A stretch of 64,000 bases of DNA from Nitrosopumilus sp. (GCA_965207075.1 CBDBLO010000002.1:256001-320000), one strand, 5' to 3'; shown: positions 48,713 through 64,000, counted from the stretch's first letter. Translations and numbers: made by a program. Notes: a model not told the origin generated them from the letters alone.

Positions 48713-48767
48713 GCGTGCGGGCGCGGCCCCGCCGTCCGGCGGATTGCGCGCCGTGCCGACAACGCAG

Positions 48768-49814
48768 TCAGCTCTTTCTGATGTCGGTAAAGGGGGCGCC
48801 CAGAACAATCTTTCTTGCGTAAGCGGCGGCCTCCGTTACTGCGGATCCTACGGACTCGGTGTCGCGTCCTAGCAGCCTTGCCATCACCCCAGTGTTGCCG
48901 CTCATTACGGTGGCGCCGCCTGCAACTTCGCCGTGCCGGAGTATGATGTCGTCGATGCCCTTTTGCAGGACTTCCACGTATTTTTTTTCTGTAATAACGT
49001 ACAACGAGGATACGACGTCGTACTTTTCCATTATTCCAAACGACTTTATGTTCGGCGTTGATTTGTTTGCGGATTGTGACTGTAGATGCGATGTCTGTTT
49101 CGGGGTCGATGTTTGTGAGGATGACGATAAAGATGCTGTTCGCGGCGATGCTGCTGACGCTGCTGACGCTGATGGCTGCAAGGACACGATCCGCGGCTCC
49201 ATCCTTGCCGCATCCACAAACCTGAACCTCTCGTCCTGATCCGTGACGCGCATCCTCAGACTGCATGACTCGTACGCAAACGACTCGCCCATTCCGACGC
49301 GCCCGGGTGATACGGTCTCCGCGTACACCAGAGTTGCAGTCTCGTGCACGGACATGACCGCATCCTGCCGGAACCTGGATCCCGCGTACGGGATTATCTG
49401 GTCGGGCATGTACTCCAGATACGAGCTCTCGCCCAGCGACAGGCGAAGCGACGCCCGCGCCGCCGGCTTCTTTTCTGTACGCGCCGAGTCTCTTGTCCCG
49501 TATATCCTGGTGGCCCCCTGCGTCGTGATGTGGGCCCTCGCCCCGCCGCCCAGATCAAACCTCGTGACGTGCCTGTCGCCCTGGAGTATGCCGCCGGACG
49601 TGGACGTGACATATACGTACGCCATGTCTGGCAGGGATTGCTCACAGTAGAGCGCCCTCTGTACCGCCAGGGGCGGCTCTGCACGCTGGCCCGCAATTAT
49701 CGTCTTGGCGCCGTCATGGAGCAGCGACAGGTGCAGGCGCCCCTCCATGCCTGTCCTGTGGGGCGGTATGACGTCCGCGGCAGCCGCGGCCTCCGCCCCG
49801 GCCGCGGCCCCCAT
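48768..49814 (-). CDS. ureD: Urease accessory protein UreD
   Basis: 'PLAVQR', 'SGGILQGD', 'ITTQGATRIY', 'LEYMPDQIIPY', 'PGR..MGE.F'. Start overlaps the ureG stop. Confidence 0.92.
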   Translation of the reverse strand: MGAAAGAEAAAAADVIPPHRTGMEGRLHLSLLHDGAKTIIAGQRAEPPLAVQRALYCEQSLPDMAYVYVTSTSGGILQGDRHVTRFDLGGGARAHITTQGATRIYGTRDSARTEKKPAARASLRLSLGESSYLEYMPDQIIPYAGSRFRQDAVMSVHETATLVYAETVSPGRVGMGESFAYESCSLRMRVTDQDERFRFVDAARMEPRIVSLQPSASAASAASPRTASLSSSSQTSTPKQTSHLQSQSANKSTPNIKSFGIMEKYDVVSSLYVITEKKYVEVLQKGIDDIILRHGEVAGGATVMSGNTGVMARLLGRDTESVGSAVTEAAAYARKIVLGAPFTDIRKS

Positions 49815-50488
49815 CACCGTTGTACTTCCCCCCCATTTTTGGCGCGGCTCTTCGGGGGAGCCCCGAACAGCAGGTTTCTTACTATCAGGTCCGCCACCTC
49901 CGGTACGCCCCGGTCGGTCATGCAGTTGACAAAGACAAACGGCTTTTCCGCGCCCCTGATTCTCAGGGCGTCTGATCTCATCACCTCCAGGTCCGCGCCC
50001 ACCATGGGCGCCAGGTCCGTCTTGTTTATCACAAGCAGGTCGCAGCTCGTTATTCCAAGCCCGCCCTTCCTTGGATACTTGTCGCCGCCGGCCACGTCTA
50101 CGATGTAGATGAAGTAGTCTGCAAGCAGCGGACTGAATGTGGTGGTTATGTTGTCGCCGCCGCTCTCTATTATTATGAGGTCCAGCTCGGGGTGCTCCCT
50201 TTCGATGTCCTCTATTACCGATATGTTCATTGACGGATCCTCCCTCACGGCCGTGTGCGGGCACCCGCCAGTCGCCAGCCCCACGACCAAGTTCTCCGGC
50301 AGCAGGCCGCGCTCCGTGGCCAGGTTGGATCTCATGCGGTCCGCGTCCTCCTTTGATATGACGTCGTTTGATATTATGCTCACGCTGTATCCGCGGCCCG
50401 CCAGCACGGGCACCACGCGCTCAATCAGCATGCTCTTTCCGGAGCCCACGGGCCCGCCTATTCCGATCCTAGGTATCCTCTCTGCCAT
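49814..50488 (-). CDS. ureG: Urease accessory GTPase UreG
   Basis: 'IGIGGPVGSGKS', 'TGGCPHTAVRED', 'ESGGDN', 'INKTDLAP'. Confidence 0.97.
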   Translation of the reverse strand: MAERIPRIGIGGPVGSGKSMLIERVVPVLAGRGYSVSIISNDVISKEDADRMRSNLATERGLLPENLVVGLATGGCPHTAVREDPSMNISVIEDIEREHPELDLIIIESGGDNITTTFSPLLADYFIYIVDVAGGDKYPRKGGLGITSCDLLVINKTDLAPMVGADLEVMRSDALRIRGAEKPFVFVNCMTDRGVPEVADLIVRNLLFGAPPKSRAKNGGEVQR

Positions 50489-50505
50489 ACCGCGCCGTCC
50501 TCCCG

Positions 50506-51240
50506 TCACGTAATGAACATTTTTGCATCCGTCCTCGCATGGGCCATCTGCAGCGCCTCGGCATGCGGGCAGAACTGCCACATCTCCGACACGTCCTTTG
50601 CAACCGACGACGCGGCGGCCTCCCGCATGACGGGCTTTAGCTCGTGGATTATCCCCTGCGCCTCAAAGTGATGTATCATTCCCAGCCGCAGCGCCGCGCC
50701 CACCATGTTTGAGACAAACCCGTACAGCATGATCAGCGCGGCCTTTTCTTTTCCGATCCCGAGCGCGCGGCAGCACACGCCCAGTGCGACCGGGTAGACC
50801 CCGGAGGCCCTCCCGTCATCTATGCACTCCATGTATCTTGCCAGGCGCGCGTCGCCGCAGAACCCTGCAACGCACCTGCACAGCTGCACTCCGGAGCGCA
50901 CGTACGCGTCCCTTGCCTCCCGCACCGTCTTTGCAGAGCAGCATGCGGCGTCTATCTCCTCTATGGCATCCGTGTCCTCGTGTGGCGCCGCGTCGTACGC
51001 GTTTGCAAGGGCCACGCAGTCTGCAACGCCGACCTGATGTGTGATCAGATCCCTGCACAGCGCCGACAGCTCCCGCGCGCCGGTTACCATCCCCCTGGCA
51101 AACATCAGCTCCAGCCCGCCCGATGACGCAAACATTCCGGTGGGAAACAGCGAGTCTGATATCTGCAGGGCGTCAAGATCGTCCGGTGCGCAGGCGCCGG
51201 GGCCGTCCCCCGCCGCCGCTTCCGCGTCACTGGTGCCCAT
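50506..51240 (-). CDS. ureF: Urease accessory protein UreF
   Basis: 'LQISDSLFPTGMFASSGGLE', 'AALRLG', C-terminal 'MAH....KMFIT'. Confidence 0.93.
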   Translation of the reverse strand: MGTSDAEAAAGDGPGACAPDDLDALQISDSLFPTGMFASSGGLELMFARGMVTGARELSALCRDLITHQVGVADCVALANAYDAAPHEDTDAIEEIDAACCSAKTVREARDAYVRSGVQLCRCVAGFCGDARLARYMECIDDGRASGVYPVALGVCCRALGIGKEKAALIMLYGFVSNMVGAALRLGMIHHFEAQGIIHELKPVMREAAASSVAKDVSEMWQFCPHAEALQMAHARTDAKMFIT

Positions 51241-51793
51241 GCACGTCGGCCCCCGCATGCGGCACAAAGATCTCACTTGCAATCTTCAGTTCGACGCCGC
51301 CCCCCACCTGGCCGAGCAGCCTCTCAAACGTCTCTAGCTCCGAATCGTCCTGTATGGGAAACGACACGGTCCCTTCCTCCCCGTTGACCGAGATGGGGCG
51401 GTGCCTGTTCCCTATTACGTGGCCCATGACCAGGCATGGCTCAAAACAGTCGTCGGCAGACGGCATGCCATGGTTGTCCTCCGGATCCCAGTCCAGAAAC
51501 CTTGCCACTATGACCTTTTCGGGTGACTGCTGAATAATCAATGGGGGCCTCTTTGGGTTCTCGCTTTGCAGTATGTCCCCGTGGCGCAGCGTCCTGCCCC
51601 GGCTCAGGTTTATCCCCACCTCGGCCCCCGACTCTGTCCTTACAAGCTGCCTGCTCTTTGCCATGTCGGCCCTTGGCATCACCACTGTGTCAAACGATGC
51701 CCCGCCGCCCCCTGCGCGCCCTTTGTCGCCGCTGAGTTTTTTGCCGCCGTCGTTGAATTTGTTGCCAGCTATATCGGCGTAGACGTCCAGCAT
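51227..51793 (-). CDS. ureE: Urease nickel chaperone UreE
   Basis: 'KSRQLVRTESG.EVGI.L.RG..LRHGDIL', 'GHVIGNRH', C-terminal His ('HGH'). Confidence 0.9.
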   Translation of the reverse strand: MLDVYADIAGNKFNDGGKKLSGDKGRAGGGGASFDTVVMPRADMAKSRQLVRTESGAEVGINLSRGRTLRHGDILQSENPKRPPLIIQQSPEKVIVARFLDWDPEDNHGMPSADDCFEPCLVMGHVIGNRHRPISVNGEEGTVSFPIQDDSELETFERLLGQVGGGVELKIASEIFVPHAGADVHGHQ

Positions 51794-51893
51794 GTCGTGA
51801 CTGGCCTGCGTGTTAAATTATACTTTGCCTGCGCCTCCGCACCGCTCGTCCTCCTCAATTATTAAATATGTCACGCACGTAGGTTCAATATTG

Positions 51894-52196
51894 ATGCTCA
51901 CGCCGCGGGAGATTGACAAGCTGCACGTGTTCCTTGCGGCCCAGCTTGCGATGCGCCGCAAGGAGCGCGGCCTGAAGCTCAACCATCCGGAGGCGGTCGC
52001 CGTAATCACGGATCACATACTGGAGGGCGCGCGCGACGGCAGGACCGTGCCCGAGCTGATGAGCTCGGGCAGAAGCGTGCTCTGCAAGGACGACGTGCTG
52101 CCGCAGGTTCCGGATCTGATACACTCGATACAGGTGGAGGCCACGTTTGACGACGGCACAAAGCTCGTGACCGTCCACGACCCGATAGCAAGGTGA
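51894..52196 (+). CDS. ureA: Urease subunit gamma
   Basis: '[10 protein letters not shown]', '[10 protein letters not shown]', 'EGARDG', '[19 protein letters not shown]'. Confidence 0.97.
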
Positions 52197-52331
52197 GGAT
52201 GCGTTGTTGTGCTTGCGTGGTGGAGACTGTGATGGTGGCAGGTGGTAATGGTGGCAGGTGATGATAATAATGATAATTACGACGACGACCACCAGGATCG
52301 CATTGAAAACCACGGGGGCGGAGGCCGGGCA

Positions 52332-52706
52332 GTGACCACACGCGAAATACCCGGCGAGTACATCATAGCCGGTGGCGACATCGTACTCAACCGGGACAGG
52401 GACACCGCGTCGGTGCAGGTCACGAACACGGGGGACCGCCCTGTGCAGGTCGGATCGCACGCCCACTTTTTTGAGGCAAACAGGGCCCTGTCCTTTGACC
52501 GGCAAAGGGCGTACGGGTTCCACCTGAACATTCCCGCCGGGACGTCCGTCCGGTTCGAGCCGGGCGACTCGCGCACAGTCAGCCTCGTCGCGTACGGCGG
52601 GGAGAGGACGGTGTACGGCTTTGGCGGGCTGGTGAACGGGCCGCTCGACCAGAAGAGGGACGAGGCCCTGCGCCTTGCTACAGAGAGGGGGTACAGGTCA
52701 CAGTGA
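52332..52706 (+). CDS. ureB: Urease subunit beta
   Basis: 'IPGEY', '[19 protein letters not shown]', '[14 protein letters not shown]'. An upstream in-frame low-complexity extension from 52242/52248 is possible. Confidence 0.95.
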
Positions 52707-54415
52707 CGCTTGAGATTCCACGACGCCGGTACGCCGAGCTGTTCGGGCCCACCGCCGGCGACAGGGTCCGGCTTGCCGACACGGACCTGATAATAGAGAT
52801 CGAGCGCGACCTGCTCGTGCACGGCGACGAGATCGTCTTTGGCGGCGGGAAGAGCGCGCGCGACGGGATGGGCCAGGCCAGCGGCGTCCTGCGGGAGGAT
52901 TCGCTTGACCTGCTGATTACGAACGCGATCGTCATGGACCCGGTGCTTGGCATCGTAAAGGCCGACATCGGGATAAAGGACGGGCTAATCGCGGGCGTCG
53001 GGAACGCCGGAAACCCCCACATCATGGACGGCATAGAGATGACCGTGTCGTCTAACACGGAGGTGATCGCCGGCGAGCACACGATATGCACGCCGGGCAC
53101 CATAGACACTCACATCCACTTCATCTCGCCGCAGCAGGCGGTGGACGCCATATGCAACGGCACCACCACCATGATAGGCGGCGGCACGGGCCCCGCCGAC
53201 GGCACAAAGGCCACGACCTGCACGCCGGGCTCGTGGAACATACACCGCATGATAGAGGCCGCCGAGGAGTACCCTCTCAACTTTGGGTTCCTCTGCAAGG
53301 GCAACGACTCTAGGCCCGAGTCGCTTCTGGAGCAGGTGGGGGCCGGCGCCTGCGGGCTGAAGCTGCACGAGGACTGGGGGACGACCCCCGCCACCATAGA
53401 CTCGGCCCTGCGCGTGGCAGACGAGACGGACACGCAGGTCGCGATACACACCGACACGCTCAACGAGTGCGGCTTTGTGGACGATACCATACAGGCCATA
53501 GCGGGCCGGACCATCCACACGTACCACACGGAGGGGGCCGGCGGGGGGCACGCGCCCGACATAATGAGGGTGGCCGGGGAGCCTAACATACTGCCGTCCT
53601 CCACCAACCCGACGCGCCCGTTCACGGTGAACACGTTGGCGGAGCACCTCGACATGATGATGGTTTGCCACCACCTGAACCCCTCCGTCCCGGAGGACCT
53701 CTCGTTTGCAGAGTCGCGCATACGCGGCGAGACCATAGCGGCGGAGGACGTCCTGCACGACATGGGCGCCATATCCATGATGTCCTCTGACAGCCAGGCG
53801 ATGGGAAGGGTGGGGGAGGTTACCACCAGGAACTGGCAGACCGCCGACAAGATGAAGCGGAGCGCGGGGCGGCTTGCCGGCGAGCGCGGCGACAACGACA
53901 ACTTGCGCGTGAAGAGGTACCTTGCCAAGATCACCATAAACCCTGCCATCACGCACGGGATATCGGCCCACGTCGGCTCGCTTGAGCCCGGCAAGCTTGC
54001 CGACATCGTGGTGTGGACGCCGCAGTTCTTTGGCATAAAGCCCAAGATGATCATAAAGGGCGGGTTTGTCGCGTACTCGCTGATGGGCGATCCCAACGCG
54101 AGCATACCGACGACCGAACCGGTGTACTACCGCCCGATGTTCGGGGCGCTCGGCTCGGCCAAGCACTCGACGTCGGTCACGTTCACGTCAAAGCTGGCCA
54201 TTGCCCGCGGGCTTTCGGACAGCCTTGGAACCTCAAAGAGGCTGGTGCCAGTCGAGAACTGCCGCGGCATAGGCAAAAAGGACATGATATACAACGACCT
54301 GACGCCTGAGATACGCATCAATCCTGAGACCTACGAGGTCGTGGTGGACGGCAGTCCGGCCACTGCCGAACCGGCGACGCGCCTGTCCCTTGGAAGGTTG
54401 TACAGCCTGTACTAG
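52703..54415 (+). CDS. ureC: Urease subunit alpha
   Basis: 'DTHIHFI', 'GLKLHEDWG', 'IHTDTLNE', '[15 protein letters not shown]', 'MVCHHL', 'SSDSQAMGR'. Confidence 0.98.
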
Positions 54416-54494
54416 GCCTAGTCGACATCGACTAGTTTTTTGTATATAAGGCGAGATACGGTTTGAACGCATATGGGGGAAGTAGGCCACACGT

Positions 54495-56714
54495 ATGCGC
54501 ATGGAGCGCGGACAGCCTGCGACTACCACCCTCTCTACGATAACGGCATCAGTGGTGGCGCCGCTTGAATCTATTGCGTCTGCTGCGGCTGCTAACAAAA
54601 AGGCGATCATGTCCCGGCAGGCGTTTTTGCCGTCTGCGGCAGTGGCGCTGGTCGCCGTACTGGCTATATCCTGCGTCCCAAACCCGGCGTTTGGTGCCGG
54701 TGCCATCGCGGAAGGATTCACGATAGGCGACGTGCTCGACGAGAGCTGGGGCTGGTTCATAGTTGTGGGCCTCGGCGCCGTGTTCGCGATCGTAATCACG
54801 ATCGAGACAAAGGTGGAGGAACGATACCTAGGCGTCTCCCAGACCTCAGAGTGGTTCAACACGGCTGGCAGGGTGATCAAAACAGGCCTTACTGCGGCTG
54901 CCATTGTATCTGCCTGGACGTGGGCCGCCACGCTGCTGCAGTCGTCGACGGTCGCCTACCAGTACGGGGTAAGCGGTCCGTTCTGGTATGCGGCAGGCGC
55001 GTCCATACAGGTCCTTCTCTTCGGCATACTGGCAATAGAGCTCAAGCGCAAGGCGCCCAACGCGCACACGTTCCTGGAGATCATAAGGGCCAGGTACGGC
55101 GGCGGCGCCCACCGGGTCTTTCTAGTGTTCGCCCTGATGACCAACATGATAGTTACAGCCATGCTGCTGCTCGGCGGCGCCGCGGTCGTCAACGGGCTGA
55201 CCGGCATGGACATCTCGCTTGCCGCGTTCCTGATCCCGATAGGCGTGATGATATACACGCTGGTCGGCGGGCTAAAGGCCACGTTCGTTGCAGACTACAT
55301 GCATACCATAATCATATTCATCGTGATACTGATATTCGTCGGCACGGTCTACTTTGTCAGCCCCATTACGGGCGGCATCGAGGGGATGTACGACAAGCTC
55401 GTCGAGGCCGCGCGCATAAGCCCGGTGGAGGGCAACGCGGCGGGCGCCTACCTTACCATGGCGTCCATCGGCGGGCTGATATTCGGCGTGATCAACATAG
55501 TGGGCAACTTTGGCACCGTGTTTGTGGACCAGGCGTACTGGCAGCGCGCGATTGCCGCGCGCCCGCAGTCCACGGTAAAGGGGTTCCTGCTAGGGGGCGC
55601 CTGCTGGTTTGCCATTCCGTTTACGCTTGCAACTACAATGGGCCTCACGGCCGTCGCGCTTGGCGTGGACCTGACGCCAGAGCAGGTCCAGCTCGGGCTT
55701 ACGGTACCCGCCGCCGCATCGGTTTTGATGGGCGAGGTGGGCGCCGTGATGGTGCTGACCATGCTGTTCATGGCCGTGACGTCGGCGGGATCCGCCGAGC
55801 TGATCGCCGTCTCGTCGCTGATCACGTACGACGTGTATAGGACGTACAAGAACCCGTCGGCGTCGGGAAAACAGCTGCTAAAGGTCTCGCGCGCCACCAT
55901 AGTCGGGTTCGGCCTGGGCATGGGGGGCCTGGCGGTGATACTGCTGAGCATGGGACTGTCACTGGGATTCGTATACCTGGCGATGGGCGTGCTGATCGGC
56001 TCTGCCGTGATACCGATAGCCCTGACGATCACGTGGAAGCGCACAAACAAGTACGCCGCCACGATAGGCGCGATTGCGGGGCTCTTCGTGGCGCTGGGCA
56101 CGTGGGTCGGCGTGGCCGCGTCGCTGCCAGAGTTCGGGGGCGAGGTGTCGCTTGCCAGTCTGGGGCACAACTACTCTATGCTCTTCGGTAACATAGCCGG
56201 CATACTTACGGGCGGCGCCATCGCGGGCCTGGGAAGCCTGGCAAGCAGGACCAAGTTCGACTGGGCATTAATGAGGGAGAGGATAAAGCTGGTGGACATC
56301 AGCCAGGCCGAGAAGGCGGCGCTCGACGCGGACGAAAAGACGCTTGCGCGCGCGTTCAAGTTCAGCCTCAAGGGAGGCGGGATCATGACCCTGGTGCTGA
56401 TCATAGCGTGGCCCATGCCGCTGTTCTTCTCCGGGTACGTGTTTGACATCGGGTTCTACTCTCTGTGGGTCGGCATAGCCGTCGTATGGGTGAGCGCCGC
56501 GACCTTTTTTATAGTTGGGCTGCCCATCATAGAAGCGAGGCATGGAATCGCACAGGTCGCCAGGGGCAGGAAGGCAGTCGTCACGGAATCCGGGGCGCAG
56601 GAGGCCGTCGAGGATGATCCTGCCGATGAAGCCGGCGGTGGCGACGATGACGACAGTGGTGGCGACGACGACGCCAAAAGCGGAAAGGACGACGGGGCGA
56701 AACCGGGGGCGTGA
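54495..56714 (+). CDS. DUR3-type urea active transporter (SSS family)
   Basis: 'SEWFNTAGR', 'SAWTWAATLLQSS', 'AHTFLE', 'GGLKATF..DY', 'DQAYWQRAIA', 'SAELIAVSS'. Directly follows ureC. Start could be 54609. Confidence 0.93.
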   Translation: MRMERGQPATTTLSTITASVVAPLESIASAAAANKKAIMSRQAFLPSAAVALVAVLAISCVPNPAFGAGAIAEGFTIGDVLDESWGWFIVVGLGAVFAIVITIETKVEERYLGVSQTSEWFNTAGRVIKTGLTAAAIVSAWTWAATLLQSSTVAYQYGVSGPFWYAAGASIQVLLFGILAIELKRKAPNAHTFLEIIRARYGGGAHRVFLVFALMTNMIVTAMLLLGGAAVVNGLTGMDISLAAFLIPIGVMIYTLVGGLKATFVADYMHTIIIFIVILIFVGTVYFVSPITGGIEGMYDKLVEAARISPVEGNAAGAYLTMASIGGLIFGVINIVGNFGTVFVDQAYWQRAIAARPQSTVKGFLLGGACWFAIPFTLATTMGLTAVALGVDLTPEQVQLGLTVPAAASVLMGEVGAVMVLTMLFMAVTSAGSAELIAVSSLITYDVYRTYKNPSASGKQLLKVSRATIVGFGLGMGGLAVILLSMGLSLGFVYLAMGVLIGSAVIPIALTITWKRTNKYAATIGAIAGLFVALGTWVGVAASLPEFGGEVSLASLGHNYSMLFGNIAGILTGGAIAGLGSLASRTKFDWALMRERIKLVDISQAEKAALDADEKTLARAFKFSLKGGGIMTLVLIIAWPMPLFFSGYVFDIGFYSLWVGIAVVWVSAATFFIVGLPIIEARHGIAQVARGRKAVVTESGAQEAVEDDPADEAGGGDDDDSGGDDDAKSGKDDGAKPGA

Positions 56715-56720
56715 TCCCTC

Positions 56721-57290
56721 GTGACACACTGCGCCGGGTGCGGCATCACCCTTGGATGGAAGAAATACAAGTTCCAGCGCATGTGGCGCATACCGGGCTA
56801 CTATTGCAGGCCCTGCATGCTGGAGCTCGGCAAGGAGTTTGACAAGCACGCCAAGATTGTAAGCCCTACTAGGAAGTGCGATCTATGCGGCGTCGACTAT
56901 TACTTTATGAAGCCGTACAACAAGGGCGGCACCCACCACAACTACTGCCACGTCTGCTACGAGGCAGTATCAAACGGGGCCGTTCCCGTCCCCACGGCGC
57001 CAAAATCAAAAAACGAGCTGCCGAGGCCCCCGCAGAAGCTGCCCCTTGTAATGATAATCTTTGCCGGACTGGGCGGCCTGATGATGCTGCTTGGACTGGG
57101 CTTTACCATGATGTCCACCGGGGAGGATGCCAACGTGACGCACATCCTGTTTGGCGCCATTACGACCGCGCTCGGGTTCGTCCTGATTCGAAAGACGCTA
57201 AAGTCGCGCAGCCTGCTACTGGGCCGCGGAAACGTGGGAGGCGGCAGCGGCAGACCCGAGTCGCCCAATCCGGAGACTACGACCCGCTAG
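56721..57290 (+). CDS. Double zinc-ribbon, two-TM hypothetical protein
   Basis: CAGC, CRPC, CDLC, CHVC, then two hydrophobic helices. Starts 6 bp after DUR3. Confidence 0.75.
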   Translation: MTHCAGCGITLGWKKYKFQRMWRIPGYYCRPCMLELGKEFDKHAKIVSPTRKCDLCGVDYYFMKPYNKGGTHHNYCHVCYEAVSNGAVPVPTAPKSKNELPRPPQKLPLVMIIFAGLGGLMMLLGLGFTMMSTGEDANVTHILFGAITTALGFVLIRKTLKSRSLLLGRGNVGGGSGRPESPNPETTTR

Positions 57291-57323
57291 TGCTCTTGGC
57301 TGCCGCTTCCTGACGTGACACTG

Positions 57324-58184
57324 CTATATCCCCAGCGCTGCGGCCACGCCGCTCGCAATGATATACGCGCCAAACAGCATGGCGATGCTCCCCGACGCGT
57401 ACCGGATTGCCCTCCTTGCGGTGTTGGTGCTGCCGCATGCCGCAAACAACAGTGACAGGGCGCCCGCCACCAGCACCATGCCGATCGTCGATCCCGCGCC
57501 AAACACTGACGCAAGTAATAGCGGCAGCGGTAGCAGCGCCCCGGCATCGGCCGCGGACGACGCTATTGCGTCCGGCATGGCCGACAGGGCCAACACTACC
57601 AGCCCCCCGCTTCCGGCCAGGCCGTGCACACATCCTATGACGTACGGGACGTGGCTGTGCGAGTGGCTCATGCTGCCGTCATCACCCACACCCTCGCGTT
57701 TGTCGTCGTGGCTGTGCGGATGGGAGTGCGTCGTTCCGTCCTCGTGCGTGTGGACGTGCGAGTGCGTCCAGAGCCGTGACAGGAATGGCAGCGTCCACCC
57801 TTTTGTGCCGCCGCCCCTCTCGCGTATCGCCGATATTCCAAGCAGGATCAGCATCACGCCCACCCCCATCTCGAATATGTCAAACAGCTCGTGTGGGATG
57901 TTTACGGATAGTATGATGACTAACACCGCCACTAGAAATATGCTAGACGCGTGCCCGAACCCCCATAACAGGCCCGATATGGAGCCCGTTATGCCTGCCC
58001 TCTTCTTACTCTGTTTCTCTTCCTCCTTCTTCCCCCGTCTGACGGACGACAGCATTGCGGTTACGTGATCCGGCTCCAATGCATGGTACAGCCCTACCAG
58101 CAGTCCGGCCCCCAACAACAGCAGGGGGGCCTCTGCATACGGCGCATGGTATGCGCCTGCAAGCAGCCCGTCCAACACGGTCAT
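57324..58184 (-). CDS. Nickel permease (UreH/HoxN-NixA-like)
   Basis: 'HALEPDH', 'WGFGHA', His-rich loop 'HSHVHTHEDGTTHSHPHSH', 'IGCVHGLAGSG'. Confidence 0.88.
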   Translation of the reverse strand: MTVLDGLLAGAYHAPYAEAPLLLLGAGLLVGLYHALEPDHVTAMLSSVRRGKKEEEKQSKKRAGITGSISGLLWGFGHASSIFLVAVLVIILSVNIPHELFDIFEMGVGVMLILLGISAIRERGGGTKGWTLPFLSRLWTHSHVHTHEDGTTHSHPHSHDDKREGVGDDGSMSHSHSHVPYVIGCVHGLAGSGGLVVLALSAMPDAIASSAADAGALLPLPLLLASVFGAGSTIGMVLVAGALSLLFAACGSTNTARRAIRYASGSIAMLFGAYIIASGVAAALGI

Positions 58185-58711
58185 GGCATCTCCCCCGAGA
58201 TCATCCTGCCGCCACTGCCGCCGCCATTGCTGTTGCTAAACAATGATGCTGGAGATGCTGATGGCTGTCCCTGACTCAATCCCTGTTTCATATATGATGT
58301 GGGCCTGATTGGATCCTGTATCACAATATTTACCGCGTCGCCTCCTGTCCTGTCCGTGATGCCGATCTCAAGGCGCTTGATCATGTCCGGCACGCCGATC
58401 ATCACCTGGTGGTCAGACAGCATGTCCGGCAGCCCCTCCTCGATTGCAGGCGTACGCGAGTCCTGGCGGTCTGCTGCCGCAGACGAGTAAGCGCATGCCC
58501 CGTACAGCAGCATGACGTCGTTGATGTTTATCCTGCGGTTGCCGGCGATCATGTTCTGGATCGAGTCGGCCGCTGCCGCAAGCATCTCCTCGTCGCTTCT
58601 GTCCCTGATATCGTACCGCCTGGTCAGCGGGCCCATGTCCCTGTCTGCTCCCCGCGCGGTTACCCGGATGGTGCACTGCAGGAGGCGGCTGCTGTGTGTA
58701 TTACGCGTCAA
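58181..58711 (-). CDS. Divergent urease-gamma-like protein
   Basis: 'RRININDVMLL...MLSDHQVMIGVPDMIKRLEI...VIQDPI' aligns by eye with UreA '[10 protein letters not shown]...[20 protein letters not shown]...VTVHDPI'. 4-bp overlaps with both neighbours. Confidence 0.6.
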   Translation of the reverse strand: MTRNTHSSRLLQCTIRVTARGADRDMGPLTRRYDIRDRSDEEMLAAAADSIQNMIAGNRRININDVMLLYGACAYSSAAADRQDSRTPAIEEGLPDMLSDHQVMIGVPDMIKRLEIGITDRTGGDAVNIVIQDPIRPTSYMKQGLSQGQPSASPASLFSNSNGGGSGGRMISGEMP

Positions 58712-59823
58712 CCGCGATCAGGAATCTCCGCCCGTGGGTTTCCAAAGTTGTACGTGTTGCCCGTACCGCGATAGTCCCTCGGCCTGACGGGGCTGCCGCC
58801 CTCAAGCCCCCTCTTTGTAAGCGAGAGTCCCGCCAGCAGCTCCACTATCAGCCGCTGGCCAAGGCCCGAGGTAATCCCGCCGTTGTACGAGCTGTTGTCG
58901 CTGACGTCGTACGCCGGCGCGACCTCCACCAGATCCATCGCAAAGCGGTCCGGGTCAAAGGATTTCGAGAGCAGCCTGATCATGCGTATGCCCTCCCTGG
59001 ATGTCAGTCCGTTGGGCTCCGGCTCCCCGGTGCCGGGGGCGTATGCGGGGTCAAACGAGTCTATGTCCCAGCTCAGGTATACCGCGTCCGTCCCGTCGTT
59101 TGCGCGGTCCGCAATCTCCTTTGCGATATAGTCTATGCCCATCTCCTCCACGTCGAGCATCGTAAACCATTGAAAGTCCTGGTCGGACATCCACTTGTAC
59201 AGATCCGGCCCCGGCCAGTATCCGCGCGGTCCCACAAGCGAGTAGTTGCGCCCCTTCATGCACCCGATCTCCATTATGCGGCGTATGTGGGCCCCGTGGT
59301 CGTACTTGTAGCCAGTCAAGCCCTGCGGCGCGCAGTCCGCGTGCGTGTCAAAGTGTATCATGCCTATCCGCTTGTACTTTTTTGCAAATGCCCTTACGTT
59401 GGCATACGTTATGGAGTGGTCCCCCCCGAGCATGACCGGGATGCCGTCTTGCTCGAGCACCTCCTTGACCTTTACGGTCATCCTCTTGTGTGACTCTATC
59501 ACGTCGCCCGGCGAGACCTGCACGTCGCCGTAGTCCACGGTTCTGAACGTACCAAACGGGTCGGCCCCGGTCTCTATGTTGAACCGCTCGTACGGCGGGG
59601 ACGGTATGGTGGACGCGGCGCGCAGGGCACGCGGGCCGTACCTCGCACCCGGCCGTATCGTGGTGCCAAAGTCAAACGGCTCGCCTATTATCGCCACGTC
59701 GGGGTTTGCCTCTACCAGCTCGGCGTGGCTTCTGATCCAGGGCAGGTGCAGAAATGTGTTTATTCCCACAAACGGCGCGACGTCGGCCCCCCGGTAATCG
59801 TCACCGTAAAACTCCATCCCCAT
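58708..59823 (-). CDS. Ureohydrolase (agmatinase/guanidinase/arginase family), substrate unknown
   Basis: 'PFDFGTTIRPGARYGP', 'DYGD', 'GGDHS', 'DTHAD', 'DIDSFDPAYAPGTGEPEPNG', 'DLVEVAP'. Confidence 0.92.
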   Translation of the reverse strand: MGMEFYGDDYRGADVAPFVGINTFLHLPWIRSHAELVEANPDVAIIGEPFDFGTTIRPGARYGPRALRAASTIPSPPYERFNIETGADPFGTFRTVDYGDVQVSPGDVIESHKRMTVKVKEVLEQDGIPVMLGGDHSITYANVRAFAKKYKRIGMIHFDTHADCAPQGLTGYKYDHGAHIRRIMEIGCMKGRNYSLVGPRGYWPGPDLYKWMSDQDFQWFTMLDVEEMGIDYIAKEIADRANDGTDAVYLSWDIDSFDPAYAPGTGEPEPNGLTSREGIRMIRLLSKSFDPDRFAMDLVEVAPAYDVSDNSSYNGGITSGLGQRLIVELLAGLSLTKRGLEGGSPVRPRDYRGTGNTYNFGNPRAEIPDRG

Positions 59824-59995
59824 GATAATCAATTATGTGACGCATTGTGGATAAATAAAGATTCCAAGTAAAGTACGCATGCGCGGCGCGACACCGACAA
59901 GGCGCGCCGGATCGTATATGGGGGAACGGCCTTCCGCGCGCGCCCTGCTCGCGCGGCAACATCCAAAGTTATAAGCGCGTGCGTCTAGTTCGCGC

Positions 59996-61249
59996 GTGGT
60001 ATTTGCAGGAAAGGGACGCGGCGTAAACGAGTGGCGTCACATAAACGAAGGACTCCGATGCGAACGGTACGGACAGCTCTCAAAGGCGGCTTCCCGGTTC
60101 GCAAAGGCCTTGAGCATAAACCCGCACAACGGGACCGCCCTGATGCACATTGCGGGCATACGCTACCAGACGGGAAGGTACGACGACTCCGAACGCTGCT
60201 ATGCAGAGATAGTCGAGTCCGATCCCTCCAACATAGACGCCCTGCAGGGCCTGGGGCTTGCGCTCGAAAAGCAGCACAAGTATGCGGAGGCCCTTGCACA
60301 CTTTGAGAAGATCCTTGCAATAGACGCCACGTATGACGACGCAGTTGCATACTCGGCCCTCTGCAGGAGCGGACTCGGGGGTCACGACGAGGCGCTTGCG
60401 ATGCTTGACGGGGTGATATCGAGAAGCGGCGGCCACCACGTGCAGGCCCACTACTGCAGGAGCCGCGTCCTGAGCCGGATGCACAGGGATGCCGAGTCCA
60501 TATCGGCCCTGAATGACGCAAGGAAGGCCGAGGCCAGGCAGTCTGCCGCCCTGTACGAGCAGGGCAGGGCTCTGTCACGGCAGAAAAGGCACGAGAAGGC
60601 GGTGGAGATGTACACAAGGGCGCTGCGCCTGAACCCGGAGAACGCGGACGCGCTCGTGGCAAAGGGCTGGACGCTTGACTATGCGGGGCTTCCCTCAAAG
60701 GACGTGGTCCCGCTCTATGAAAAGGCCATACAAGTCGACCCGCACTGCACCGAGGCCCACCTCAACCTGAGCTTCCTGTATGACCGGACCGGCCTGTACC
60801 GTAAGGCAGTCGCGTGCCTTGACAGGATTCTCGAGTACGATCCGAGGAACGTCAGGGCCCTTTACAGCAAGGGGATCGCGCTGCACTCGCTAAAGCAGCA
60901 TGCTGCGGCCGCGTTCTTTTGCGACGCTGCGATACGCGCCGACCCCTCGAACCCCAAGGCCCTGTGCAGCATGGTCTGGATATTGGAGCACCGCAAACAG
61001 TATGCGGAGGCCCTTGAATACTGCGATCTGGCCATCGACGCGGATCCGGAGTACGCGTACGCGCACAGTTATCGCGGAAAGCTGCTGTACCTTCTGGAGC
61101 GGCACGACGAGGCCCTCATGTCGTACGAAAAGGCGCTCTCGCTTGATCCTGGCAACCGCACCGCTGAGTACTATCGCGACAAGGTTGTGGAAAAAATCAC
61201 AAAGGCGCAAAAAAGGGCCGCAAAAGGGAGGAAGGGGGGGCCAAGATAG
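59996..61249 (+). CDS. Tetratricopeptide repeat protein
   Basis: About 10 TPRs (ALSINP, DPSNIDAL, ALRLNPENADAL, DPRNVRALYSKG, ALSLDPGN). Confidence 0.9.
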   Translation: MVFAGKGRGVNEWRHINEGLRCERYGQLSKAASRFAKALSINPHNGTALMHIAGIRYQTGRYDDSERCYAEIVESDPSNIDALQGLGLALEKQHKYAEALAHFEKILAIDATYDDAVAYSALCRSGLGGHDEALAMLDGVISRSGGHHVQAHYCRSRVLSRMHRDAESISALNDARKAEARQSAALYEQGRALSRQKRHEKAVEMYTRALRLNPENADALVAKGWTLDYAGLPSKDVVPLYEKAIQVDPHCTEAHLNLSFLYDRTGLYRKAVACLDRILEYDPRNVRALYSKGIALHSLKQHAAAAFFCDAAIRADPSNPKALCSMVWILEHRKQYAEALEYCDLAIDADPEYAYAHSYRGKLLYLLERHDEALMSYEKALSLDPGNRTAEYYRDKVVEKITKAQKRAAKGRKGGPR

Positions 61250-61418
61250 CCGGTGACTGCCGCCATAATTAATGCAGAATGCGCGCCCGCGCAATTCACG
61301 GCCCGCCCGACGGGCGATTCGTACTGTACGCAGGCGGCCGGCCCGAAAATATTATGTGTAATTTGCAACAACACGACAGTGACAAAAATCTTATAACATA
61401 CCACGCCACACCACATGC

Positions 61419-61673
61419 ATGGTCGCGGTAAGCACGCCGGAGGACATAGAGCGCGAGTCCAGGCGCGTCATCACGTCCCTGTACGGCGACGTGATATCCG
61501 ACTTTAGGGTCAACGAGACTTTTCAGATACCCGAGAAGGGGCCGCGCGTGGCGTGGGACGTGCAGGTGAACTTTATGCGTGACGGGCTAAAGTATACCGT
61601 GGACCTCGAGATACAGGAAAAAGATTGCCAGGTTACGAACGCCAGACTGATCGACACCATGACGCCGCTGTGA
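61419..61673 (+). CDS. Hypothetical protein (84 aa)
   Basis: Globular-looking ORF with normal codon usage and TATA-like CTTATAA upstream. Confidence 0.7.
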   Translation: MVAVSTPEDIERESRRVITSLYGDVISDFRVNETFQIPEKGPRVAWDVQVNFMRDGLKYTVDLEIQEKDCQVTNARLIDTMTPL

Positions 61674-61680
61674 CGGCGGC

Positions 61681-62208
61681 TCAGGCAGAGAGGATCTCCT
61701 TTGCGGTTCTCATCCTTTGCAGGATGTTGTTTACGTACACGTCGGCAAACCTGTCAAAGGTCATGTGGCCGTTCCCGGACCCTGCCGCAGCCGCGGCACG
61801 GTGCGACTCGTACTCTGAGTGGAGCCACTCAAAGTCCGACTCCTGCAGCCGTATGATCCCGTTCTGCGACTCGAACTTTGACTCGAACAGGTTTGCAAGA
61901 AAGTAGCTGACAAAGTGCGAGTAGCACTTTATGCGGTATTTTGATGCGTACTCCCCCATGTGTTCCTTGTGGTAACTGTCGATCCACTCCTTTATGTCGT
62001 TGCGTATGGTCAGCGTGTTGTACTTGCCTGAGAGGTCGAGCCTGTGGCCGTGCATCCTCACCGTATACCGTCCCAGCCTCACCTCGTTCATCAGAATTAT
62101 CAGGGTGCTTGGCAGGAACATTCCCGGATAGAACGTGTCCGTGACGCTTGTGAGGAGCGCCAGTATGCTCGGCTTGAGGCCGATTGTAGAATATCCACTG
62201 CCGGGCAT
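61681..62208 (-). CDS. Hypothetical protein (175 aa)
   Basis: ATG-started ORF with an AT-rich promoter-like region (62230-62257). Duplicated 'STIGLK'/'TLTIR' segments may be RHH-like (weak). Confidence 0.7.
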   Translation of the reverse strand: MPGSGYSTIGLKPSILALLTSVTDTFYPGMFLPSTLIILMNEVRLGRYTVRMHGHRLDLSGKYNTLTIRNDIKEWIDSYHKEHMGEYASKYRIKCYSHFVSYFLANLFESKFESQNGIIRLQESDFEWLHSEYESHRAAAAAGSGNGHMTFDRFADVYVNNILQRMRTAKEILSA

Positions 62209-62444
62209 GCAGTGCGTACCGTACTGGCGTTTATATTATTTTATGAATATATTAAAAGTGCGCGTTCCGGCCGGCTTAATTTACGCTTGGGCGCGTCCTG
62301 CATCTGGCATTGTGGGCATAAGGCTCTAACCGATCCGGCCGTATGCCGTCAAAACCTTGCACCGTCGCGCGCCGCCTGCAGTGCGCGCCGCCGCGGACGC
62401 GCGCGGCCAAGCGCGACGAACGCCTGCAGTCGCCGCGCCTGTAG

Positions 62445-62660
62445 TCACTGCCCCGTGCGGTTCTTCTTGATGTCCGATATGATCCGCATCACTATCCAGA
62501 ACGACGCGATTGCGATGGTCCCGACTCCAAGTCCCGCCAGAAACGGCATGCTCTGGTCTGCGCCGTCCTGCTCCCCGCCGCCCATCTGGGTCAGGGCAAA
62601 ACCGAATATTATCAGTATGACTGCCGCCGCAAACTGCTTGTCCACAGACGGGATGTGCAT
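62445..62660 (-). CDS. Small two-TM membrane protein
   Basis: MHIPSVDKQFAAAVILIIFGFAL...FLAGLGVGTIAIASFWIVMRII. TATA-like TTTTAA upstream. Confidence 0.65.
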   Translation of the reverse strand: MHIPSVDKQFAAAVILIIFGFALTQMGGGEQDGADQSMPFLAGLGVGTIAIASFWIVMRIISDIKKNRTGQ

Positions 62661-63057
62661 TGGTAGATTAAAAGCAGTTCGTGGCGCATGCCGTATGTCC
62701 TGGCCGGTTCCGGACAGCATCTGGGCATTTCATAGCATTGAGCCTCTGGCGCGGAATCCTGATGGCGCGCCGGGTATTGCACCAGTAGGAGGAGGAGGAG
62801 AGGTCGTGGGAGGAAGAGGAAGAAAGAGCGTGCCGTGAGCCGCAGCCCCGCCGCCGTTGCCTCTGCGGGCCGCCTTTGCAGCACCCCTTTCTGCAGGGGC
62901 GCCCCGCCGCTTGTTGCATCTTCACATAATACATCTTTTTTTTGTATTTGCTACGTTTTATGCATAAATTTGTATTATACACATGATATCTTATGCGTAA
63001 TACGTACTTTACATCAAATTTTCAATATTTAATAGGTCTGCATCCGTAACAGATGCG

Positions 63058-64000
63058 TTGGCGGAGATAGACGGCTTTGGGGCCGCGATCATACTGTTCA
63101 TTATACTTACACTGGTAGTCGGCGTCCTGTCGGGCCGGCTCATAAAGCAGAGCGGCAAGCGGCTGATTGTCGCGGGCAAGAGCCTGCCGCTTGCCATGGT
63201 CGGGACGATGCTCGCCGCGCAGGCCGTGGACGGCAACTCGTCGCTTGGCAACGTGGCGCTGGTCTTTGAGTTCGGGTTCTGGGCCGGGGCCGTCGTGCCC
63301 ATAGGGCTGGGCGTGTGCCTGCTGATCACGGCCACGTTCTACGCGAAGCCCCTCAACAAGATGTCGATGATAACCCTGCCGGACTTTTACTACAGGAGGT
63401 ACGGCAACGCGGCAGAGGGCATATCAGGCGTACTCATGATAATCAGCTTTACCGTCCTAGTCGCGGGGAACCTGGCCGCAAGTGGGTTCATACTGGAGAT
63501 CGTGTTCGGGATTGACTTTTTCTGGGGGATTCTATTCTCGGCCCTGGTGGTGGTTGCGTATACCTGCGCAGGCGGACTGTTTGCGTCCGCGTACACCAAC
63601 CTGTTCCAGGTGTACCTTGCAATCGCCGCGTTCTGGGTCGGATTCCTGTACTTTGCGGGTGGGTTTGCAGACGCCCCGTGGGCTGTCATATACGCGAATG
63701 CGCCGCCCGAGTTCTTGGACCTGTCGGGGCTGTTTGACATCGGCAACGGGGCCCTGATAAACTGGGGCGCCATACTGGCGCTGGGACTGGGCGATATCAT
63801 CGCCCTGGACTTTATGGAGCGCGTGTTTGCCTCAAAGGATCCGAAGACTGCAAGGCGGGGCGCATACATGGGCGGGGCCCTCACCCTGTTTACCGTCGTG
63901 CCCACTAGCATGCTTGGGATCGTGGCGCTCTACTACCTGCCGGGTGACACGGATCCCGGGTTCGCGCTCCCGCTGCTCAGCACCTTGCACATGCCCTTTG
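63058..64000 (+). CDS. Sodium:solute symporter (SLC5/PutP-like, non-DUR3), truncated by window end
   Basis: Absent from the ORF track because there is no stop in the window. TTG-started frame: 'LIVAGKSLP', 'AQAVDGNSSLGN', 'TLPDFYYRRYG', 'YTCAGGLFASAYTNLFQ', 'LDFMERVFASK'. Confidence 0.9.
   Translation, partial: MAEIDGFGAAIILFIILTLVVGVLSGRLIKQSGKRLIVAGKSLPLAMVGTMLAAQAVDGNSSLGNVALVFEFGFWAGAVVPIGLGVCLLITATFYAKPLNKMSMITLPDFYYRRYGNAAEGISGVLMIISFTVLVAGNLAASGFILEIVFGIDFFWGILFSALVVVAYTCAGGLFASAYTNLFQVYLAIAAFWVGFLYFAGGFADAPWAVIYANAPPEFLDLSGLFDIGNGALINWGAILALGLGDIIALDFMERVFASKDPKTARRGAYMGGALTLFTVVPTSMLGIVALYYLPGDTDPGFALPLLSTLHMPF

Follow-up and report, generated by a model that had tools for sequence, protein, structure and literature searches.

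The window analyzed here is a stretch of 64,000 nucleotides from Nitrosopumilus sp. (GCA_965207075.1 CBDBLO010000002.1:256001-320000; G000:C2:256001-320000 in the numbering of this analysis). The genome comprises 2.23 Mb in two contigs, with a G+C content of ~61%. An archaeal AmoA is encoded in it (E 1.1e-116), and the organism is therefore an ammonia oxidizer. A cassette of three genes was recognized on the minus strand of the window. The first gene encodes a ureohydrolase of the arginase family (58708-59832; PF00491), which is 374 aa in length by the longest open reading frame (ORF) and is designated as UH2 in this analysis. The second encodes a urease-gamma-like protein (58181-58711; 176 aa), recognized through profile-profile and fold matches, and the third encodes a NicO/NiCoT-like metal permease (57324-58184; 286 aa) with a weak match to Pfam NicO, the motif HALEPDH, and a His-rich loop. 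The genes are joined by two 4-bp overlaps. The TTGA at 58708-58711 is shared by the stop codon of UH2 and the TTG start codon of the gamma-like gene, and the ATGA at 58181-58184 by the stop codon of the gamma-like gene and the ATG of the permease gene. An AT-rich box read from the sequence, TTTATTTAT (59851-59859, minus strand), is located 28-36 nt 5' of the probable start of UH2 and may be an archaeal TATA element.

The cassette converges on urease genes on the plus strand: ureA (51810-52196; Pfam Urease_gamma), ureB (52242-52706; Pfam Urease_beta), and ureC (52703-54415; Pfam Urease_alpha and Amidohydro_1). They are followed by a DUR3-type transporter of 739 aa (54495-56714, plus strand; Pfam SSF, NCBIfam sss) of the sodium:solute symporter (SSS) family. 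The urease accessory genes ureE, ureF, ureG, and ureD (48768-51793, minus strand) were assigned with Pfam UreE_N, UreF, cobW (UreG type), and UreD. The name DUR3 follows a first-pass annotation of the window and the literature on ammonia-oxidizing archaea (AOA) (PMC12686405; this and all other papers are cited for particular passages), and the transporter function is predicted. The first-pass annotation had described three genes on the minus strand that overlap by TTGA and ATGA and converge on a ureABC-DUR3 unit; the ORFs, the overlaps, and the plus-strand genes were all found in the sequence. These three genes stand as parts of the unit, but three further genes that travel with UH2 had been missed, namely those for a symporter of the SSS family, a TPR protein, and a protein of 175 aa.

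The TPR-repeat protein (59996-61249, plus strand; 417 aa; Pfam TPR families) is encoded divergently from UH2. It is followed by the gene for the 175-aa protein (61681-62208, minus strand), recognized through the conservation of the neighborhood, and by the gene for the symporter, designated as SSS2 (63058-64000, plus strand), which leaves the window; the full gene is located at G000:C2:319058-320698. In the 20-kb loci, the recurring order is SSS2, 175-aa protein, TPR protein, UH2, gamma-like protein, and permease. This order persists in three closed genomes (G110, G006, and G030) in which ureC is ~200-600 kb away, and in G065 the permease gene is ~6 kb from UH2. In three loci (L091, L096, and L101), the module abuts urease. 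Of the 30 short loci, 20 have the TPR gene next to UH2, as do most of the 20-kb loci.

SSS2 is a PutP/PanF-like symporter. A full-length copy with 99% identity (L090:3000-4619) scored 82.8 bits against PF00474 (SSF), the cut-off being 22.8. SSS2 is 36% identical to a haloarchaeal symporter adjacent to UH2, versus 21% to the DUR3 of the window. The 175-aa protein is conserved in the neighborhood with 45-97% identity. It matched no family in Pfam or NCBIfam. The nearest named Atlas clusters, RHH/Arc/ParG, scored 0.83-0.86, and this weak signal is no more than a lead to a ribbon-helix-helix regulator.

UH2 and its relation to agmatinase

UH2 matched PF00491 with 272.5 bits (cut-off 22; E 5.6e-81) over positions 2-277 of the 280 of the profile. 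The motifs read in the first-pass annotation are present: GGDHS at residue 136, DTHAD at 162, RGYWP at 203, DIDSFD at 256, and GTGEP at 267. The extended C-terminus is likewise present as a tail of ~40 aa beyond the end of the Pfam domain (residue 332). The comparators chosen there are also correct, since GTGTP is seen in Escherichia coli SpeB and in the guanidinobutyrase GbuA (3nio), and GTGWP in the guanidinase 9fek. In an alignment of 35 sequences, the six ligands of the binuclear metal center (H139, D162, H164, D166, D256, and D258) are invariant, as is E303. The intact catalytic residues suggest that UH2 is an active binuclear-metal ureohydrolase. The orthologues in the same alignment start with MGMEFYGDD, which makes the ATG at 59823 a more probable start of UH2 than the TTG at 59832.

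Against the agmatinase equivalog model TIGR01230, UH2 scored 158.4 bits, under the cut-off of 174.3, whereas the only other arginase-family gene of the genome (L002; G000:C2:1523276-1524058) passed with 195.5. UH2 is 32% identical to this SpeB, which reads GVGNP where UH2 reads GTGEP. Among the proteins in PDB, the best matches of UH2 were GbuA (3nio; 2.2e-51), the guanidinase 9fek (1.4e-47), and the guanidinase GdmH (7esr/7oi1; 6.9e-47). The next relatives were guanidinopropionase (3nip), proclavaminate amidinohydrolase (PAH), and metformin hydrolase subunit A (1e-34); true agmatinases ranked after them, at only ~1e-34.

In the alignment of 35 sequences, the clade of UH2 is marked by GTGEPEP, YDHGAH, a tail with G.PVRP, and two insertions (SPPYE.FNIETG and VSD..SYNGGITS). 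The nearest group outside the clade, with 43-46% identity, has GTGTPEP and lacks both insertions. In a quick maximum-likelihood search with 34 rows, the UH2 clade (23 rows) was supported with SH-aLRT 96, and E. coli SpeB and the SpeB of the genome fell outside. The rows did not include GbuA, GpuA, GdmH, or MefH as anchors, and the PDB ranking is used for these proteins instead. The tree and the TIGR01230 scores agree with the earlier proposal that UH2 differs from the housekeeping agmatinase. In public records, UH2 is labeled "agmatinase" or "agmatinase family protein".

In one deep AOA family (f5), UH2 has a C-terminal extension of ~60 residues, with 10-11 His in the last 60 (L122:5893-7146 and L123:9521-10837; P0013 and P0015). 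The H.H.H.H runs in these tails resemble the metal-binding tails of nickel chaperones.

The urease-gamma-like protein and the metal permease

The gamma-like protein of the window has no Pfam match of its own, but 20 of 21 aligned orthologues matched PF00547 (Urease_gamma) at E<=1, the best at 4e-10. The hhalign comparison of the family with the UreA of the window gave a probability of 95.7% (E 1e-8) over 88 columns. The AlphaFold model has a predicted local distance difference test (pLDDT) value of 78.5, with block means of at least 90 for residues 11-80, and shows a beta hairpin at the N-terminus, which leads into a gamma fold and then a disordered tail of Gly and Ser. In a Foldseek search of PDB with this model, the best 13 matches were all urease gamma chains or domains, with template modeling (TM) scores of up to 0.73 on the target. 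The orthologue matches, hhalign, and Foldseek thus agree with the first reading of the middle gene as urease-gamma-like, and public sources label the protein "urease subunit gamma".

The fold shared with UreA covers ~95 residues, including the motifs (K/R)(L/I)N-x-x-E, VM-x-GVPEM, and PI, which are represented in the 21 orthologues by RIN.NE.LLL, QVMIGVPEM, and PI. The first helix of UreA is replaced by a beta hairpin in the gamma-like protein. The identity to the copy in the window is 24-35% in 19 of the 20 aligned orthologues and 84% in the nearest relative. The copy of the f5 locus L123 shares 39% identity with UreA and matches Pfam Urease_gamma with E 4e-20; such an intermediate fits an origin of the gamma-like gene by duplication of ureA.

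The gamma-like gene is located outside ureABC, and the canonical ureA is also kept in each genome examined. Wherever both positions were listed, it comes just downstream of UH2. With starts set by the longest-ORF rule, all 22 other callable loci show the stop of UH2 and the start of the gamma-like gene as a 4-bp overlap (11 loci), a 1-bp overlap (8), or abutting (3). This coupling of the two genes is more than chance. One genome (G016) has two pairs of gamma-like and permease genes. One pair belongs to an intact cassette with UH2, while the other is beside urease without UH2 and has its permease split by a stop codon (L089 on G016:C12 and L090 on G016:C133). The doubled pair may stem from a mixed assembly or may be a duplicate in decay.

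The permease of the window scored 21.5 bits against Pfam NicO (PF03824), below the cut-off of 27.7 (E 1.6e-4), and the orthologue in L123 scored 27.9 bits, just over the cut-off. A permease orthologue weakly matched both RcnA-type (efflux) and HoxN/NixA-type (uptake) models of NCBIfam. HALEPDH in the window corresponds to H-A-x-E-(P/A)-D-H, which is conserved in all but one of 17 aligned sequences. The exception has HVLEPDH, in which HX4DH is kept, and the His-rich loop is present in all 17. HX4DH in an early transmembrane helix is the signature of NiCoT transporters. The permease gene adjoins the UH2 cassette in 21 of 30 short loci.

Permease neighbors were inspected in eight loci (six without ureC and two with ureC but without UH2). 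In the 22 ORFs scanned from five of these loci, four of them without ureC, no genes for cobalamin or nickel enzymes were found; the ORFs included MFS, YnfA, ArsR-type, thioredoxin/DsbD, radical SAM, histidine kinase, and SDR proteins, and are uninformative as to the metal. HypA had no match in the genome of the window, and UreG is its sole strong GTPase of the CobW/HypB/UreG type.

Distribution, constraint, and expression

The distribution of the module was surveyed in 201 genomes of the family to which the window belongs, with the same set for every gene. UH2 orthologues were counted by hand at E<1e-80, and gamma-like matches were accepted at E<=1e-5. The counts include G092 for every gene and G093 for the permease, and dropping both shifts each count by at most 1. 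UH2 was found in 73 genomes, the gamma-like protein in 58, the permease family in 94, ureC in 99, and SSS2 in 71. UH2 and ureC occur together in 71 genomes, so that ~7 of 10 urease-positive genomes (71/99) have UH2; 28 genomes have ureC only, 100 have neither, and the two with UH2 only are 76% and 85% complete. UH2 and SSS2 are both present in 70 genomes and both absent from 127, with three genomes having UH2 only and one SSS2 only.

For UH2 and the gamma-like protein, the counts are 57 with both, 16 with UH2 only, one with the gamma-like gene only, and 127 with neither. The single UH2-negative genome with a gamma-like gene is G039, in which the gene is broken, and the gene is absent from the other 27 ureC-positive, UH2-negative genomes of the family. 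The gamma-like protein is regarded as a dispensable accessory because it is undetectable in 16 UH2-positive genomes.

The permease is more loosely distributed: UH2 and permease are both present in 60 genomes, UH2 alone in 13, permease alone in 34, and neither in 94, and the corresponding numbers for permease and ureC are 64 with both, 30 with permease only, 35 with ureC only, and 72 with neither. The permease is neither specific nor required, because it occurs in 30 genomes without ureC and is missing from 13 with UH2. Of the earlier designation as a nickel permease, the linkage to UH2 holds and the match to NicO is weak, but the family is not urease-specific; its presence in ureC-negative genomes leaves both Ni and Co as candidate metals.

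In a sample of 251 genomes drawn from the whole class, UH2 was found in the families f1 (42/145), f3 (16/30), and f5 (2/3), and the remaining eleven families (72 genomes) had none. Many closed genomes are among the carriers of the module. Four of five f3 loci keep the order 175-aa protein, SSS2, UH2, and gamma-like protein, the fifth being rearranged, and three of the five have urease at a distance of a few kb. The f5 locus L123 carries UH2, gamma-like protein, permease, and ureABCEFGD on one strand. In L091 and L122, the permease gene is directly between UH2 and ureABC. The linkage of UH2 to urease and the permease, which the first-pass annotation had noticed in the window, is thus conserved far beyond this genome. 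The same annotation had suggested host-derived substrates. With 73/201 genomes of the family and members of two other AOA families carrying it, the module is not special to a host-associated organism, and host-derived compounds are not the natural reading.

Outside AOA, UH2 orthologues with 50-55% identity and a conserved GTGEPEP were found at 51 loci, nearly all of them haloarchaeal. A symporter of the SSS2 type is encoded within 6 kb of UH2 at 42 of the 51 loci (37-41% identity in the eight pairs listed), and an AbrB/MazE-PhoU-type regulator at 43. Urease genes are within 6 kb of the UH2 orthologue at eight of the 51 loci, and all five haloarchaeal genomes without adjacency that were tested have urease elsewhere. 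In a metagenome-assembled genome (MAG) of Aquificaceae, the UH2 orthologue is flanked by ureA on one side and ureG/ureD on the other, and an ABC transporter of the NMT1/TauA type follows. With blastp, the gamma-like protein and the permease of the window found no counterpart in the haloarchaeal and Aquificaceae loci.

In Haloarcula marismortui, UH2 is annotated as "agmatinase family protein" beside a "sodium:solute symporter family protein" and a "phosphate uptake regulator PhoU". On plasmid pHMA411 of this species (L116), the unit of SSS, regulator, and UH2 is ~8 kb from the formamidase gene fmdA and an APC permease gene, which suggests an island for scavenging small nitrogen compounds. In Halovenus, a ZIP-family metal transporter is encoded directly downstream of the UH2 orthologue (L073:7185-8039).

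The proteins of the module differ greatly in their conservation. In 29 other loci (L004-L032), the identity to the window is 90-99% for UH2, 26-81% for the gamma-like protein, and 33-85% for the permease. In G006, the identities are 95% for UH2, 85% for ureC, 79% for SSS2, 54% for the 175-aa protein, 47% for the TPR protein, 42% for the permease, and 31% for the gamma-like protein. Recent horizontal transfer of the cassette was considered and rejected, since the flanking gamma-like and permease proteins are only 26-42% identical at the same loci; the divergent flanks argue instead that UH2 is probably under very strong purifying selection. UH2 stays 90-99% identical across genera in which UreC is only 77-85% identical and the G+C content is very different, which is uncommon among metabolic enzymes. 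Such conservation may be due to the many interfaces of an oligomer or to very high expression.

A natural knock-out is provided by G039, whose ureC is 97% identical to that of the window. UH2 is reduced to residues 1-40, the gamma-like gene has a frame shift, and the TPR gene is truncated, while the permease, DUR3, and ureCBA are intact. This pattern indicates that the gamma-like gene is lost along with UH2, and that the permease is retained along with urease.

Expression was inspected with contigs from three RNA-library runs of three studies, two of the runs being recorded as sponge metagenomes. Two runs include contigs, 90-99% alike, over parts of UH2, the gamma-like gene, the permease gene, and neighbors, and one contig crosses the junction of UH2 and the gamma-like gene (58630-58850). 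The third run contains one identical UH2 piece of 158 nt. These contigs carry no information on ends, strand, or level, DNA carry-over is possible, and uncovered stretches such as 57864-58235 are uninformative. They are a weak hint that the module is expressed in related strains.

Other features of the window lie around the urease genes. A 189-aa protein without a Pfam family is encoded between DUR3 and the permease (56721-57290, plus strand). It has Cys-rich N-terminal motifs and a predicted membrane segment, and is kept after DUR3 in near relatives with 74-98% identity (L088, L089, L101, and L125). The C-terminus of DUR3 is an acidic tail rich in Asp and Gly, and the longest ureB ORF starts with an Asp/Asn-rich stretch. 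A match to the small RNA (sRNA) model RF02514 (5_ureB_sRNA) at 52855-53147 on the minus strand, antisense in ureC, scored 47.7 bits (gathering threshold 40; E 5.4e-10) and was the one match above the gathering threshold in an Rfam scan of 48000-64000. It most likely reflects the conserved urease coding sequence underlying the model rather than an sRNA gene.

A putative guanidino-compound route and its alternatives

We consider that the module may be a conserved, urease-dependent system of AOA in which an imported guanidino compound is converted to urea and then to ammonia, with a UH2 that is possibly loaded with Ni or Co, and give this reading a probability of roughly 55%. SSS2 would import a small guanidino compound. 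The first-choice candidates for the substrate are guanidine and short cationic alkylguanidines (such as methylguanidine or agmatine), with guanidino acids next. UH2 would cleave the compound to urea and an amine or ammonia, and urease would convert urea to ammonia, which would feed ammonia oxidation and assimilation. The embedded permease would supply Ni (or Co) to UH2 and urease. The gamma-like protein would be an accessory specific to UH2, either a structural partner or an adaptor presenting UH2 to UreDEFG. That SSS2 is the importer, which class of substrate and which metal are involved, and what the gamma-like protein does are all inferences.

The chain of uptake, hydrolysis, and urease fits because the pairing of importer and hydrolase is conserved and occurs almost exclusively in urease-positive genomes. 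The linkage to urease, seen independently in AOA, haloarchaea, and the Aquificaceae MAG, points to the same chain. For the substrate, the Glu in the UH2 pocket would suit a cationic group, as in guanidinium, methylguanidine, or agmatine. A PutP/PanF-like symporter, together with the precedent of GpuP, would instead suit a guanidino acid. For the metal, the permease and the His-rich tails of some UH2 proteins suggest Ni or Co. Should UH2 need help with Ni, UreDEFG is the sole recognizable machinery, and the gamma-like gene is coupled to UH2, which makes the gamma-like protein the obvious, if speculative, candidate for the adaptor.

Several observations weigh against this reading. Of the diagnostic residues T105, H222, W313, and E344 of the Nitrospira inopinata guanidinase (PMC11410670), the Thr, His, and Glu are kept in UH2 in the alignment with 9fek, but the Trp (W313, in GTGWP) is replaced by Glu. 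The metal ligands of UH2 fit Ni and Mn alike. The permease is missing from the 13 UH2-positive genomes given above and from 35 ureC-positive ones, the gamma-like gene is undetectable in 16 of the 73 with UH2, and the profile of the gamma-like family found only true ureA in the haloarchaeal and Aquificaceae loci. The co-occurrence counts are descriptive, as the genomes are related and the genes linked, and do not represent independent events; the physical linkage of UH2 and SSS2 means that their co-occurrence may reflect joint gain and loss of one cluster, irrespective of the compound that SSS2 carries. An Rfam scan of 48000-64000 at E<=1 revealed no guanidine riboswitch or other riboswitch. 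The AOA literature calls the SSS of the module a urea transporter (PMC11131427), and known guanidine-degradation genes are reported from no AOA in the passages of PMC11410670; the floodplain MAGs of PMC12625717 likewise lack them in the part cited. The comammox guanidinases are also found without Ni chaperones (PMC11410670), and thus neighbors such as GhaA/B or a riboswitch are not strictly defining.

The alternative that survives best, which we regard as improbable though still to be taken seriously, is that UH2 is an extra agmatinase acting on intracellular agmatine or an arginine-derived compound, and that SSS2 is a urea transporter, the two managing the urea pool with urease. It corresponds to the published readings. 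In soil AOA, an SSS "urea transporter" clusters with an "agmatinase (SpeB)", which is expressed, and for which a part in the control of urea concentration was suggested (PMC11131427). UH2 is taken as one more copy of speB, of which 2-3 are counted in most AOA (PMC10753782). UH2 still reaches 158 bits on the agmatinase model, the Glu of GTGEP would suit a cationic tail such as that of agmatine, and restriction to urease-positive genomes fits urea recycling equally well. However, the genome has another agmatinase which passes the equivalog cut-off that UH2 fails, and UH2 forms a separate clade with two specific insertions and GTGEP for GTGTP. The lack of UH2 in 28 urease-positive and 100 urease-negative genomes is left unexplained, as is the pairing with a TauA/NMT1-type ABC importer in Aquificaceae. 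SSS2 is only 21% identical to DUR3, and the cited AOA passages offer no data on urea transport by SSS2.

A second alternative keeps the same pathway, but takes UH2 as a plain Mn enzyme, with the permease (as Ni supply) and the gamma-like protein (as a spare or alternative subunit) serving only urease in a urease "supra-operon". Mn is the usual metal of the arginase family (PMC11271267). The permease remains intact beside urease after the loss of UH2 in G039 and lies between UH2 and ureABC in L091 and L122, and the public name of the gamma-like proteins is that of a urease subunit. Against it, the permease stays with the cassette in G110, G006, and G030 despite the distance of urease, and remains ~6 kb from UH2 in G065. 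The gamma-like gene is coupled to the stop of UH2, not to ureB or ureC, decays with UH2 in G039, and is present in none of the other 27 ureC-positive genomes without UH2, while the canonical ureA is kept everywhere examined. The His-rich tails on some UH2 proteins are also not accounted for. On balance, this alternative is doubtful and is placed after the agmatinase one. It is scarcely credible that the cassette is a decaying or non-functional remnant whose middle ORF is not a real gene, for which the missing Pfam match of the middle protein in the window, its low-complexity tail with pLDDT <50 at residues 140-166, and the many spurious long ORFs of a GC-rich window could be cited, because this ORF is found in 58/201 genomes with invariant motifs and a confident gamma fold, UH2 appears to be under extreme purifying selection, and RNA-library contigs cover the gene.

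The preferred reading, a guanidino-compound route feeding urease, can be compared with known systems. In Pseudomonas aeruginosa, gpuP is presumably paired with the guanidinopropionase gene gpuA, and we know of no linkage of gbuA or gpuA to urease, a permease, or a gamma-like gene. The gpuP gene encodes a sodium:solute symporter (PMC7214821). GbuA of this species is the best solved relative of UH2, but has GTGTP and lacks the two insertions and the C-terminal tail of UH2. SpeB belongs to the same superfamily, in a separate clade and with a different motif.

The guanidinases, GdmH of Synechocystis (7esr/7oi1) and the N. inopinata enzyme (9fek), have the fold and the metal ligands in common with UH2. 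Growth of comammox on guanidine was shown (PMC11410670), and the urea released by UH2 would, like that of the comammox guanidinase, feed the energy metabolism of a nitrifier. The transporters associated with guanidinases are APC permeases or ABC transporters, whereas the partner of UH2 is an SSS.

Most arginase-family enzymes use Mn, and the Ni-dependent ureohydrolases have characteristic neighbors: GhaAB for GdmH and MetAB for MetCaCb (PMC11271267), and hypAB, hupE, and urease for MefH/DmgH (PMC11399263). The MefH/DmgH clusters of Aminobacter and Pseudomonas consist of hypA, hypB, the alpha and beta genes of mefH/dmgH, and hupE, with urea transport and urease genes downstream (PMC11399263, PMC11271267). 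The module resembles them in that a hydrolase of the arginase family, yielding urea or one of its derivatives, is encoded with a known or predicted Ni transporter, accessories, and urease, and the clustering with urease served there as an argument for the native substrate. In the Aminobacter and Pseudomonas clusters, the hydrolase is a heteromer of two ureohydrolase paralogues, the accessories are homologues of HypA/HypB, and HupE is the transporter. Here, a single hydrolase of the GTGEP clade is combined with an accessory derived from urease gamma, a NicO/NiCoT-like permease, and an SSS symporter. The module is thus a variation of the known theme of ureohydrolase, metal supply, and urease, while its accessory protein is new.

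The claim of a new system in the first-pass annotation needs to be narrowed in the same sense. Clusters of Ni-dependent ureohydrolase, transporter, and urease (PMC11399263) and the clustering of SSS with "agmatinase" (PMC11131427) were already known. A literature search, conducted outside subscription-only papers and supplements, found no paper in which the UH2 clade is set apart from SpeB, the gamma-like protein is described, or a co-distribution of UH2 and urease is noted. In the passages of a paper on a thaumarchaeal sponge symbiont, only SpeB is mentioned, as ubiquitous (PMC6790972).

The UH2 clade, the gamma-like protein, and SSS2 call for caution in annotation, as they are filed as "agmatinase" or "speB copy", "urease subunit gamma", and "urea transporter", respectively. 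The gamma-like protein would be a natural case of a urease-subunit paralogue working outside urease, and the adaptor role, if true, would be a new kind of Ni delivery beside the HypA/HypB-type chaperones. A more specific form of the preferred reading, offered tentatively and not expected to hold in every part, is a third organic route to energy and nitrogen in AOA of marine, host-associated, and other lineages besides urea and cyanate, in which guanidine or an alkylguanidine would be imported by the SSS and cleaved by a Ni/Co-dependent UH2 with a Glu pocket, with the gamma-like protein as the adaptor for Ni loading by UreDEFG. Urea use is now regarded as a major niche factor for AOA (PMC12686405).

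AOA count among the most numerous microbes of ocean and soil, and their known substrate range is very narrow. The module, whose UH2 is more conserved than UreC and is common to haloarchaea, is a concrete candidate for a further urea-yielding substrate of nitrification.

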